Assembly (NCBI GenBank): GCA_963804995.1
Contig: CAWDSK010000001.1
Coordinates: 160,001 to 224,000, forward strand
DNA from: an uncultured Acidobacteriota bacterium
Lineage (GTDB): Bacteria > Acidobacteriota > Terriglobia > UBA7540
DNA length: 64,000 nucleotides
Direction: 5' to 3'
Part shown: piece by piece, positions 1 to 8,790 of the stretch
How the letters are laid out: the number at the start of each line of letters is the position of its first letter
Numbering within the stretch: position 1 is the stretch's first letter
Translations under genes and position numbers: made by a program
Notes under the pieces: model-generated
The model's database searches: none
Seen by the model: the letters and a program-made list of their open reading frames with translations, nothing else
Told to the model about the DNA's origin: nothing

Positions 1-119
1 CAGTCATCGCAGGAAGGCCGCAGGCCAAACCGATCGAAGATAGGCACGGTCTCGGGAAACTTCAGCTTCACTTCGCGCATGGTCTCTCCGCCCCGCACCA
101 GATCAGTGAATTGCAACAT
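1..119 (-). CDS. 5' part of a small protein running off the window, possibly ScdA-N/DUF542-like
   Basis: Manual translation from ATG at 119, with GGAGG upstream and overlapping the radical SAM stop: MLQFTDLVRGGETMREVKLKFPETVPIFDRFGLRPSCDD; PETxxxFxxxG...C pattern. Confidence 0.55.
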   Translation of the reverse strand, partial: MLQFTDLVRGGETMREVKLKFPETVPIFDRFGLRPSCDD

Positions 120-1317
120 GGCTTGCCTCCCTCTCCTTGCGGTCCGGCTCCGCCTGCCGGGGTTGGTAGACGCAGAAAGGTTCCTCGTCCAGGTAGTCTC
201 CCGTGGCGGCATAGGCCCGCGCGCGGCAGCCCATGCAAATGTTGCGGAACTCGCAATAGCCGCATTTGCCTTTCAGGTTATCGGTGTCGCGCAGCTCACG
301 GAAGACTGGAGCGTTTTCCCAGATCTCTTCCAAAGTCTGCTCGTGGAGATTACCCGCCAAGGCTGGCAGATATCCGCAAGGAAAAACTTCTCCTTGATAA
401 GATATGAAGCACACGCCGGTGCCCGCCAAACAGCCTTTAGTCATAGCCTGCATGCTGTCAGGATGGCCCGCGACAGGATGCCCCGCGTGGGGATGGAGTC
501 CGATTCCTGTCGAGCCGGGCATGGTCATTTCCGTGGGGCCGATATCGTGACCGATACCTTCTGCGGCAGGCGGGGCGATGGAAGCGGCACGGCGTTCCGC
601 AGCGCGACGCTGCCGCGCCACGCGGAAGTAGTGCGGCGCGCAGGTGGCTTTCAATTCGATGCCGCCTTCCTGGGCGCGGTCGTAGAACCAGTTCAGAATT
701 CTTTCGTATTCGTCGGCCGGGACCATCTGGTCTTCAGCAATGTCCACTCCACAGCCGACCGGAACCAGCAGAAAAGTGTGGAGCGCGTCCGCACCCAGCC
801 GGCGCGCCAGATCCAGAACGGCGGGAAGCTGGTGCGCGTTGTGCCGCGCGATGGTCATGTTGATCTGCACCGACATGCCGAGTTCCTTCAAATTTCGCAG
901 GCCGTGCAGGGCCTTATCAAATGCTCCCGGGATGCCTCGAAAGGCATCGTGGGTAGCGGCGTCCGCTCCGTCCAAACTGATGGAGACGCGGCGCACGCCG
1001 GCATCCACGATCTTGTGTGCTACTTCTTTGCTGACCAGAGTTCCATTGGTCGCCAGCGCCACGCGCAATCCACACTCGCGCGCGTAGCGGGCCAATTCAA
1101 AAATGTCGTCACGAAAGAGAGGTTCGCCACCGCTTAGAACTAGGATAGGTAGGGATAACTGTGAGATTTGCTTTATTATGTTCAGGGCTTTGGTTGTTGG
1201 TAGGTCATTTGTGGATGAGAGTTCCGTAGCGGTGGCACGACAGTGGATGCAACGCAGGTTGCAACCCTTGGTCACCTCCCAAAAGATGAGTCGCGGTTTG
1301 TAAGTTGCAATTTTCAT
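103..1317 (-). CDS. ahbD: Radical SAM/SPASM protein, AhbD-like (AdoMet-dependent heme synthase / Fe-coproporphyrin decarboxylase)
   Basis: RLIFWEVTKGCNLRCIHCRA (CxxxCxxC), LLVPVGCG, LKATCAPHYFR, His-rich insert, TKGCLAGTG...PCGYL and CGYCEFRNICMGCRARA SPASM cysteines. Confidence 0.8.
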   Translation of the reverse strand: MKIATYKPRLIFWEVTKGCNLRCIHCRATATELSSTNDLPTTKALNIIKQISQLSLPILVLSGGEPLFRDDIFELARYARECGLRVALATNGTLVSKEVAHKIVDAGVRRVSISLDGADAATHDAFRGIPGAFDKALHGLRNLKELGMSVQINMTIARHNAHQLPAVLDLARRLGADALHTFLLVPVGCGVDIAEDQMVPADEYERILNWFYDRAQEGGIELKATCAPHYFRVARQRRAAERRAASIAPPAAEGIGHDIGPTEMTMPGSTGIGLHPHAGHPVAGHPDSMQAMTKGCLAGTGVCFISYQGEVFPCGYLPALAGNLHEQTLEEIWENAPVFRELRDTDNLKGKCGYCEFRNICMGCRARAYAATGDYLDEEPFCVYQPRQAEPDRKEREASHVAIH

Positions 1318-1352: not shown

Positions 1353-1640
1353 TTACGCAGCTTGCTCTTCCAAGAGCACGTCGTTCTCCATTGTCCCGAC
1401 CTGCTCTGGTAATTCCTTAATAATTTCCTCTGCCGTCAAGTAGCAAGCAGGGTCATACATCCATTCAAATTGCAGGCCTGAGTCACCTGCCAGACAACCC
1501 GGGGGGGCGGAACCATTCCCCTCGTGCGACGCGAGGAACGGATCTGCCGCTCCGGCTTCCGCCTGGCGCCCCGGCTCCCACGATTGAGGGGCGGCGTTTG
1601 CCGCATAGGAATAGCAAAGGTCTGTGATGTCCAGCATCAC
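1353..1640 (-). CDS. Small acidic protein carrying an AhbC/NirJ-like C-terminal motif
   Basis: 95 aa, GTG start after AAGAGG, between a sigma54 promoter and ahbD; contains WMYDPACYLTAEEI. Confidence 0.65.
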   Translation of the reverse strand: MMLDITDLCYSYAANAAPQSWEPGRQAEAGAADPFLASHEGNGSAPPGCLAGDSGLQFEWMYDPACYLTAEEIIKELPEQVGTMENDVLLEEQAA

Positions 1641-6943: not shown

Positions 6944-8703
6944 TCACCCTGCCACAGGAAGCAGCAAGGTGAAAGTAGAGCCTTTGCCCAACTGGCTTTC
7001 GACGGTCACCGTGCCGTTCAGGCGTTCGATGATGTGCTTGACGATGGAGAGGCCGAGCCCCGTCCCGCCCACTTCGCGCGAGCGCGCCTTATCGACACGA
7101 TAGAAACGCTCGAAGATGCGGGGCAGGTCGTCGTGGGGAATGCCGATACCCGTGTCGGCAATGGAGATACTGATTTTACCCTCGCTGGGGCGCGTGACCT
7201 CGACCAGAACCTCCCCGGAGGGCCGGTTGAATTTCACGGCGTTATCCAGGAGATTCACGAAGGCCTGCTCAATCTGCACGCGGTCACCCAGAATCTGCGC
7301 GTCGTCCATACGCCCCCACACCAAGCGGACCTCGCGCAGGTTGGCTTCGCCCTCCACGGTTCGCAGTGCCGACTCCAGCGCCCCGCGCACCGAAATGGGT
7401 TCAGGAGCGGGCCGTCCCTTGCCGGATTCGAGTTCCGATAGCGTCAGCAGGTCGGAGGCGATGTTATTCAGCCGGATCGAGTGCGCCTTGATGATCTCCA
7501 GAAACCGGCGATTGTTTTCCTGATCCTCCAGCGCCCCTTCCAGAAGGGTTTCAGCATAGCCGCGGATGGCGGTAAGCGGCGTGCGCAGCTCATGCGAGAC
7601 GTTGGCAACAAAGTCCTTGCGAATACGTTCCAGGCGTTCAAGGTCGGTGATGTCGTGCAGAATGGCGAGCGCGCCCCGCACCGAACCCGAGGTCAGGGGT
7701 GCGGCCTGGACTTCGAAAACACGGTCGGCCGCGGCGGGGAGTTGTACGCGGCGCCTGATGAACTCGCCACCCTCCAGCACGCGGGCCAGGATTTCGCGCA
7801 TCTCAGGATCTCGCACCAGATCGACGAGGGGCAGCTTGGCGGGAATGGGATTAGGCGCCCCCACGGCGCGCGCAAACGATTCATTGGCGAAGGTGATGCG
7901 CAGGTTACTGTCCACCGCCAGCACGCCCTCCACCATGCTCGAACAGAATGGCCTCACGCTGCGCGGACTCCACACTCAGCCGCTCTAGCAAAAGCTTCAG
8001 CTCGGCGGCAGTGGAGTTCAGCGAGCGCCCCAGCGCGCCCAACTCATCGTCGTCATCTGGCAACCAGGCTGGCGCGGAGGGCACCCGCACCAGGCCCTCG
8101 GCGAGCGCCCGTAAACGCCCAATACGCAGGGTGAAGGAACGCGAGAAGAAATAGGCGATGATAAGGGCCACCAGCGCCGCCGCGAGCGACGCACGCAGGA
8201 TGCGCCAGCGCACCGCCGCGATGGAGGAGTCCAAGTCCTCAAGCGGCAAGGCCAGGCGCAACACGTACCCGGCTTCCCCAGCGTAGCTGGTACGCAGGGC
8301 CACGTAACAGAGGTCGCGATTGATCGTATCGCTGTGACGGATCGAACTACCCACACCGTTTTGGGAGGCCTGCTGAATCTCCGGGCGGGTCGAGTGGTTC
8401 TCCATGGTTTCGGGATCGTGATGAGAATCCGCCAGCACCACACCCTGCGGATTGATGAGGGTGACGCGCGCCCCCGCCCGCAGCGAAGCCTGGTGCGCCC
8501 AGTCCTCGAGTTGAGGCTGCGCTGTCCCCATGACTTCCGACTGGAGAATCCGCGCTTCCACTTCCAGCCGCTGCTCAACGCTCTGCACTTCACGCCCAGA
8601 CGTGTAGCGTGTGAGGTAGAAATCCGACACTCCCAAGGTGACAGCAATCAGAAGGAAGGCGCTGGCGATGAGTTTGCGAAAGATGGGGCTGCGAAAGGTC
8701 ATG
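6944..8703 (-). pseudogene. phoR: PhoR-like sensor histidine kinase, frameshifted near 7942 (real lesion or sequencing error)
   Basis: N-half (TM, DPETMENHSTRPEI, HAMP) and C-half (PAS, FVANVSHELRTPL, FERFYRVDKARSRE, GGTGLGL) are in different frames; removing one base restores EAILSSMVEGV. Confidence 0.85.
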
Positions 8704-8705
8704 AT

Positions 8706-8790
8706 ATTTTGGATTTTGGATTTGCGATTTTGGATTGGTGCGCGACAGCGTGCAGGCACGTCCGGCAATCCAGAACCTGAAATCCAATTG
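8706..8790. repeat. TTTTGGA/TCCAAAA heptamer arrays in inverted arrangement
   Basis: ttttggattttggatttgcgattttggattgg ... caatccagaacctgaaatccaa. Confidence 0.7.

Follow-up and report, generated by a model that had tools for sequence, protein, structure and literature searches.

A short open frame before ahbD in an uncultured Acidobacteriota bacterium is probably a remnant of an AhbC-like gene

In an uncultured Acidobacteriota bacterium, a short open frame (1353-1640, minus strand) immediately precedes an AhbD-like gene, and the question this frame raises is whether an intact frame with its own ribosome-binding site, standing between a sigma54-type promoter and a heme gene, is a working gene or something left behind. 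The window in which it lies is the whole 64,000-nt stretch that was analysed. An earlier note, made from the letters alone, took the frame for a protein that keeps both termini of an AhbC/NirJ radical SAM enzyme, and hence for a possible non-catalytic partner or regulator of AhbD; a decaying remnant and a peptide substrate of the neighboring SPASM enzyme were its alternatives. As a description of the frame the note is accurate, since the frame is open, is preceded by a ribosome-binding site and contains WMYDPACYLTAEEI, and the CxxxCxxC radical SAM motif is missing from it, only the first Cys surviving, in another frame. The likelier start is the ATG at 1637, which gives 94 aa, the length also found in the database record, and the ribosome-binding site AAGAGG (1644-1649, minus), before a GTG-ATG, is inherited from ahbC, a motif like it being common to full-length and broken relatives. 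The identity given to the downstream gene (103-1317, minus), which encodes a 404-aa radical SAM/SPASM protein resembling coproheme decarboxylase, also stands, the best NCBIfam model being that of heme b synthase AhbD (TIGR04545, 479 bits, under the cut-off of 500). From the comparisons below we conclude that the short ORF is very probably what is left of an AhbC-like gene and is non-functional; some of the peptide is probably still made from the inherited ribosome-binding site, without a selected function.

Descent of the short frame from ahbC

The last 37 residues of the short ORF are the end of long frames in same-genus relatives (61 genomes searched), mostly of 407-464 codons, which lie immediately before ahbD and encode AhbC/NirJ1-like proteins. 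Among full-length relatives the nearest that was found is a metagenome locus, L292 (419 aa), and against it the short ORF shows colinear DNA and synteny with two lesions, a 1-nt insertion and a 976-nt deletion, both disabling relative to the intact ortholog. The first part of the remnant (1509-1640, minus) holds the first 43 ahbC codons in the ancestral frame, in the variable N-terminal region, colinear with L292 at pN 0.39 and pS 0.43. The second (1464-1508, minus) consists of 15 codons that are out of frame after the insertion, which lies at a C run near 1508; in the ancestral frame these codons read PRVVWQVTQACNLN, the lead-in to CxxxCxxC. The third (1353-1463, minus), beyond the deletion junction at 1463/1464, is the last 36 ahbC codons with the stop codon, and this tail is 78% identical to that of L292. 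Thus, given the colinearity with L292 and the tail shared with the relatives' long frames, the termini do come from AhbC and the catalytic core has been lost, as the note had it. Its further claim, that the core went while both ends were kept in frame, is right for the ends, which are in the ancestral frame, but not for the event, which was not one in-frame deletion, the insertion leaving residues 45-59 shifted. Those residues, the old lead-in read in the wrong frame, include the pentapeptide GCLAG, which the note had connected with the SPASM domain of the neighbor. The pentapeptide is there, but it comes from reading out of frame a piece of DNA whose ancestral frame gives VVWQVTQACNLN, and it was found in only 1 of the 108 upstream regions examined, namely that of the genome under study (G000); the connection is a frameshift coincidence, and GCLAG was rejected as a common functional motif on the same two grounds.

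In profile comparison with the AhbC/NirJ1 families the short ORF stays far below the cut-offs: it reaches 10.7 bits (E 0.14) with TIGR04054, where the cut-off is 650, and gave no match to TIGR04546 or to Pfam. Set beside AhbC/NirJ1 itself (TIGR04546, TIGR04054; 12,18-didecarboxysiroheme deacetylase), it has the same position before ahbD, and its start and DPxCYL tail align with the canonical gene of a family genome, G117 (53% over 36 aa), but it has no TIM barrel, no in-frame CxxxCxxC, and three of the four auxiliary cysteines are gone. The C-terminal auxiliary cluster motif of AhbC/NirJ1 is CX2CX5CX20-21C according to PMC10114771, and only its last Cys (DPACY) is left in the short ORF. A search of solved structures returned no AhbC-like close match, the best being PqqE at E 6e-14.

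For an open frame that depends on a single inserted nucleotide in a C run, a homopolymer error of assembly is an obvious candidate, and it was ruled out: an independent Illumina contig from an RNA library (depth 3.8) spans the run and matches 1462-1680 with zero differences, which shows the run to be genuine. Exactly at 1463 a second contig, from DNA and with 7 differences in 192 nt, continues into ahbC sequence that lacks the deletion, and with so few differences to an undeleted copy the deletion must be recent. Seventeen sequencing runs matched the stretch, none sharing more than 0.15 of its words.

Shortened loci and the selection on them

An ahbD of this type is present in 62 of the 133 family genomes. 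Of these 62, 53 were examined and 9 left out; setting aside a locus cut by a contig end (G024) and two at a contig edge (G019, G097) gives 50 loci, 21 with a full-size and 29 with a shortened upstream gene. Six unpublished genomes (G063, G134, G136, G138, G139 and G140) enter the tallies only, and no locus-level claim uses them. The full-size genes comprise 15 open and 1 frameshifted in the genus, together with those of G086, G109 and three genomes of genus g45. Within the genus, full-length orthologs of ~419 aa occupy the same position in 15 of 26 evaluable loci, and the gene is broken or lost in 11. The frames of the 29 shortened loci, classed by reading them as printed, run uninterrupted between the old start and the old stop in just four genomes (G000, G015, G022 and G026, representing three deletions); 15 are out of frame or stopped, seven have decayed past recognition and three have no gene at all. 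Hence 25 of the 29 are not open to the old stop, yet ahbD is intact. In the ahbD tree, in which bootstrap support is not fully settled, the in-frame short forms are not a clade: G015 is sister to G007, which is out of frame, and their deletions are non-nested; L323 is an out-of-frame relative of the form shared by G022 and G026; and L297, like G007 and L323, is out of frame and a close relative of in-frame forms. Sister lineages carry other deletions, mostly out of frame. This pattern of deletions indicates that ahbC has been shortened many times independently in the family. Metagenomes gave 120 loci, 48 of them without ahbD in range, and the 67 distinct regions that were kept divide into 21 full-size and 46 short. 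The start call gave no result in 28 of the 46; the other 18 comprise 11 out of frame, 1 stopped and 6 open, four of those called open starting at an internal TTG and not at the old start.

Two irregularities at these loci may be recorded here. One genome has an intact locus and, elsewhere, an isolated duplicate of the ahbC tail and ahbD start (G001:C4:45058-45168, L036). In genus g32, four genomes (L081, L084, L086 and L077) have an ahbD without ATG at the usual position, where the sequence reads WLNN, so a different start codon must be in use.

Selection could be compared in two pairs, dN/dS here and throughout being computed pairwise by NG86. Between G022 and G026 the short gene, of 144 codons, has a dN/dS of 0.94, against 0.09 for ahbD in the same pair (Fisher p 5e-6), and the 29 codons common to G015 and G007 give 1.3, against 0.12 for ahbD (Fisher p 7e-4); in the genus as a whole ahbD stands at about 0.10 (0.09-0.12 in pairs). 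The in-frame short relatives evolve neutrally. The earlier note had held that disrupted relatives free of purifying selection would speak against its main proposal, and this is what the testable parallel short forms present. With lesions defined against L292 and parallel short forms that are neutral, the decaying remnant, which the note listed second, is the best reading.

Several observations weigh the other way. The frame lost by the deletion is restored exactly by the insertion, and none of the 15 shifted codons is a stop; three independent in-frame short forms sit at the base of the genus; the frame of G022 and G026 has stayed stop-free through 39 substitutions, for which the chance is 0.29; the tail differs from that of L292 at pN 0.12 and pS 0.58, a comparison that includes its time as part of a whole gene; and the contig over 1462-1680 came from an RNA library, though library type is no proof of transcription. 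One alternative is that selection acts on translation and not on the sequence of the peptide: ribosomes that travel as far as the old stop codon would melt a hairpin or prevent polarity and so couple ahbD expression, and the +1 insertion would be a compensating change. Exact frame compensation, the retention of ribosome-binding site, start and stop, and the three in-frame lineages all suit this account, and neutral amino-acid change is what it predicts. A small hairpin is indeed predicted over the ahbC stop codon (1344-1364, minus), starting where a transcript from the internal site P2, described below, would begin; of seven loci folded it appears in G000, G015 and G023, with a variant register in G073. 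We regard it as weak because RNAalifold found no consensus structure in the tail over 39 loci, which tells against coupling as well. Also against it are the 25 loci whose frames do not reach the old stop and whose ahbD is still intact, and the fact that close relatives of the in-frame forms (G007, L297, L323) are out of frame. We consider selected translation improbable.

The earlier note preferred to see the short ORF as a working mini-protein that serves AhbD as a non-catalytic partner or regulator. Such a protein would have retained the interaction surfaces of AhbC, and to us this reading seems very unlikely. It has in its favor the open frame with its ribosome-binding site, the tail 78% identical to L292, and the full-length orphan genes considered below, which are under selection where AhbAB was not found; this hints at a second role for the parent, that is, some use that a fragment could partly keep. 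Against it, the middle of the peptide is shifted-frame sequence, the tail keeps one of four auxiliary-cluster cysteines, and the conservation of the tail sits at synonymous sites. Moreover, other short forms differ in content and evolve neutrally, sister deletions are mostly out of frame, and among proteins of 52-167 aa the short ORF matched itself alone, in a weak search in which one candidate was scored. Short ORFs are commonly found next to SPASM enzymes, and this one could for that reason be a RiPP-like precursor, the note's remaining alternative, but we give that almost no credence: the neighbor scores best as a heme b synthase and stays conserved regardless of whether an intact gene, a broken one or none precedes it, the ORF is ahbC-derived with a GCLAG unique to G000 among 108 regions, and no conserved short peptide family co-occurring with the enzyme was found in the family loci, the metagenome regions or the 52-167-aa proteins.

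Conserved DNA and RNA elements around the remnant

If the short ORF is a remnant, the survival of both termini has to be explained by something other than the protein. In this family ahbC and ahbD form an operon, preceded by a sigma54-type promoter and a structured leader. Deletions would be tolerated only where they spare the 5′ leader and ~40 nt at the 3′ end; these would bear a signal that acts as DNA, probably a sigma54 promoter within the gene that serves ahbD, and this may be why "both termini" survive. The recent 976-nt deletion and the 1-nt insertion happen to leave an open frame in G000.

The upstream promoter, P1, is a -24/-12 site, TGGCAC-N5-TTGC (1808-1822, minus), with a PWM score of 16.4. 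It is conserved in the 42 loci listed, rpoN is present in G000, and ~170 nt of leader separate it from the short ORF. The sigma54 consensus is TGGCAC-N5-TTGCW; the note was right that there is a site here and too generous in calling it perfect, the last consensus position being C and not A/T, as in relatives. About 115-170 nt before P1 are conserved boxes (1937-1990, minus), of which one, TTGCG..TTTTCACAC, can be made out by eye in the 14 loci listed; we infer that these are likely binding sites of an enhancer-binding activator.

Between P1 and the short ORF, a leader of three predicted hairpins (1701-1797, minus) is a candidate cis-regulatory RNA. The region 1630-1805 folds with z = -3.8. Thirteen of 25 pairs have changed on both sides and 97.5% of cells pair, a level of covariation reached by 0 of 500 shuffles, with slid controls at 27-64%, in an alignment of related sequences from which the structure itself was derived. 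When 137 genomes of the order were searched with a model built on 45 copies, 54 of them had a strong match (E below 1e-12), never more than one each, and by coordinates these matches precede ahbC or ahbD, except two with ahbD on another contig; the leader was not found outside the family among 151 class genomes sampled. Named records with the leader before ahbD are, among the matches listed, labelled Acidobacteriota or Terriglobia. The labels come from a pattern scan of named genomes that was otherwise too loose to be of use, 80 of its 120 results being listed and just 3 of those being true loci. Like the structured 5′ leader RNAs in Rfam (riboswitch candidates and cis-regulatory motifs), it is single copy, has covarying stems and comes directly after a promoter and before one operon; unlike them, it matches no Rfam family and has strong matches in its own family only. 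The Rfam search, over five loci, gave nothing at gathering score and one chance-level match (E 0.22) outside the leader. A scan for sigma70 promoters and terminators gave nothing relevant, and no terminator-like site in the leader. A covarying leader RNA without an Rfam match before a heme gene is the second testable lead from this locus.

At the other end of the gene, synonymous divergence across the last 13 ahbC codons is 0.04 in 13 full-length genus genes, and at least 0.26 (median 0.41) in other non-overlapping ahbC windows. Within these last codons lies P2 (1376-1390, minus), a weaker, sigma54-like GG-N10-GC site. The GG-N10-GC spacing occurs in 42 of the 50 genome loci (8 genera), against a chance of 0.14 per window, and TGG-N9-TGC in 39 of the 50, against 0.009, figures to be read with the site having been spotted after the fact and kin loci not being independent. 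It is present in broken loci too and in 61 of the 67 distinct metagenome regions, including 41 of the 46 short ones, and the residues encoded over it vary across loci (MEDDVL, MAEALL, LERDVH, LAPALL). It is missing from eight of the 50 loci, in three of which the leader is joined directly to ahbD. The match to the sigma54 consensus is 7/11 in G000 and 8/11 in most loci, reaching 11/11 in G084, 10/11 in G086 and 9/11 in G085 and G109. By PWM the site scores 3.0 in G000 and ranks 3-9 within full-length genus genes.

We think it rather likely that P2 is an internal sigma54 promoter for ahbD. For this step alone, it is quite possible that some other factor, binding DNA or RNA, recognises the conserved tail instead: by PWM most of the sites score 3-7, where P1 sites score 14-18, and in short remnants spacer bases are conserved as well (ACG before TGC, 0.90-0.98). 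What argues for a promoter is that the invariant bases are spaced exactly GG-N10-GC, that other genera (G084, G086, G085, G109) come nearer to consensus, and that CGTGC doubles as the -12 element of P1 in genus g32. The lesson of the remnant is one of caution: a deletion between two constrained DNA or RNA elements can produce an intact short ORF that has a ribosome-binding site, a promoter and conserved termini. Downstream of the ahbC stop, GAGTCGTG (1326-1333, minus), ~9 nt before the ahbD start, is kept even where ahbC is gone and is perhaps an unusual ribosome-binding element.

The heme route and the orphan AhbC-like genes

The note supposed that this organism makes heme by a route that no longer needs AhbC, and the gene content bears this out: hemE, hemY, hemH, a ChdC-like gene and AhbD were found, and AhbAB was not. 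Of these, hemE scores over cut-off, hemY adjoins a ferrochelatase gene, and the ChdC-like protein scores 120 bits against HemQ (cut-off 235) over a stretch of 187 aa; hemN did not reach its cut-off, and hemF was not found in the genome, which is 92% complete. On this inventory, coproheme for AhbD or ChdC can come by way of hemE, hemY and hemH. There are two ferrochelatase genes (L093, L094; C2, C3), the C3 copy being the one next to hemY. The hemE match (G000:C3:1221907-1222905, L091) lies in a long open frame of 689 codons, either a fusion or a long stop-free upstream stretch, and in many family genomes the hemE frame has ~660-780 codons.

According to PMC10114771 and PMC13564367, the substrate of AhbC is the product of AhbAB, and AhbD is the oxygen-independent last step of the coproporphyrin route. 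In G000, neither the AhbAB domain (PF17805, 0 of 1) nor a tblastn match at E 1e-4 to AhbAB of G117 was found, and no other ahbC copy was found either; AhbC would thus be without a substrate, although, with the genome 92% complete, AhbAB may simply be absent from the assembly. Family-wide, AhbAB occurs in 3 of 133 genomes, all of genus g45, where hemE is found in 0 of 3, against 110 of 133 in the family overall. Three other genomes (G109, G032 and G110) show neither AhbAB nor hemE, which may reflect incompleteness. Where they are complete, the ahbC genes of g45 score higher against the AhbC model than any others, at 522-529 bits, which is below the cut-off of 650 all the same; the dN/dS of g45 ahbC is about 0.11. 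The g45 genomes (G115-G117, L098-L103) carry the AhbA and AhbB domains in one open frame of 390-407 codons.

AhbAB was found, then, only in a genus with canonical ahbC and without detected hemE, hemE being common elsewhere. The family shows every stage of a switch from the siroheme (Ahb) to the coproporphyrin route, from full pathway through orphan ahbC and remnants to clean loss, with AhbD kept throughout. PMC13564367 reports AhbD in coproporphyrin-pathway organisms, most of them without other Ahb enzymes, and PMC10991733 reports ChdC in most Acidobacteria analysed. G000 resembles the coproporphyrin-dependent pathway ending in AhbD in having hemE, hemY-hemH and AhbD, other Ahb enzymes not being found, but differs in one respect: PMC13564367, a review, has AhbD acquired by such organisms, whereas the ahbC remnants suggest that here it is a leftover of the full Ahb pathway still present in g45. 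This offers a vertical origin for AhbD without other Ahb enzymes.

The full-length genus genes are orphans of this switch. Their dN/dS is 0.23 (0.21-0.25 in close pairs), against 0.10 for ahbD, and so they are under purifying selection in genomes where AhbAB was not found; the whole gene is therefore weakly useful without its known substrate. The CxxxCxxC motif is kept in 20 of 22 genus-type proteins and the auxiliary cysteines in 29 of 29 aligned. Lost are HCY, the serine of ISLDG, and WNGGG (the last also in G086 and G109), motifs that we presume to have roles in SAM and substrate binding. The orphans match the pseudo-SAM/SPASM model TIGR04347 at 306 bits (cut-off 525). Members of TIGR04347 typically lack the radical SAM cysteines; they are AhbC-like full-length proteins, as the orphans are, but most orphans keep CxxxCxxC and all keep the auxiliary cysteines, and the short ORF has none of the fold. 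Two full-length open ahbC-like genes, L058 (in G020) and L335, lack two or all three radical SAM cysteines and keep the auxiliary set, and are either pseudo-enzymes or in early decay.

An orphan AhbC-like protein that is still selected is the best lead from this locus. One bolder scheme, which we offer as unlikely though worth stating, is that the substrate-less AhbC is kept in about half of the genus as a non-catalytic Fe-S sensor (of iron, oxygen or redox state) or as a partner of AhbD; the three-hairpin leader, responding to a ligand (heme, coproheme or SAM) or to this AhbC protein, would run the operon, the internal sigma54 promoter would let ahbD bypass the leader, and the mini-ORF would be the scar that exposes this undescribed set, with a small chance of still acting as a peptide. 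As a protein the short ORF is ordinary, and the leader RNA, the internal site and the orphan enzymes are of greater interest. Among the titles and abstract beginnings listed in searches of a mainly open-access literature, none mentioned an ahbC remnant, an orphan AhbC or such a leader, though the leader could be included in motif lists that supplement RNA surveys.

Some neighboring genes deserve brief mention. After ahbD come three genes in the same direction (L011:13335-15213, minus; overlapping window positions 1-212 and continuing beyond the window start): a 106-aa ORF that overlaps the ahbD end and has no Pfam match, a YwiC-like membrane protein and a nitroreductase-family protein; ahbD and these three are probably one operon. 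Elsewhere in the window, a sensor kinase, presumably PhoR-like, appears split over two overlapping frames (7905-8768 and 6944-7975, minus), possibly by a frameshift. Outside the locus, a radical SAM/SPASM paralog of the TIGR04053 family (G000:C6 L012:7298-12298; 474 bits, over cut-off) sits between a gene seemingly broken after 299 codons and one for a 762-aa membrane protein, which we take to resemble quinol-dependent nitric oxide reductase.
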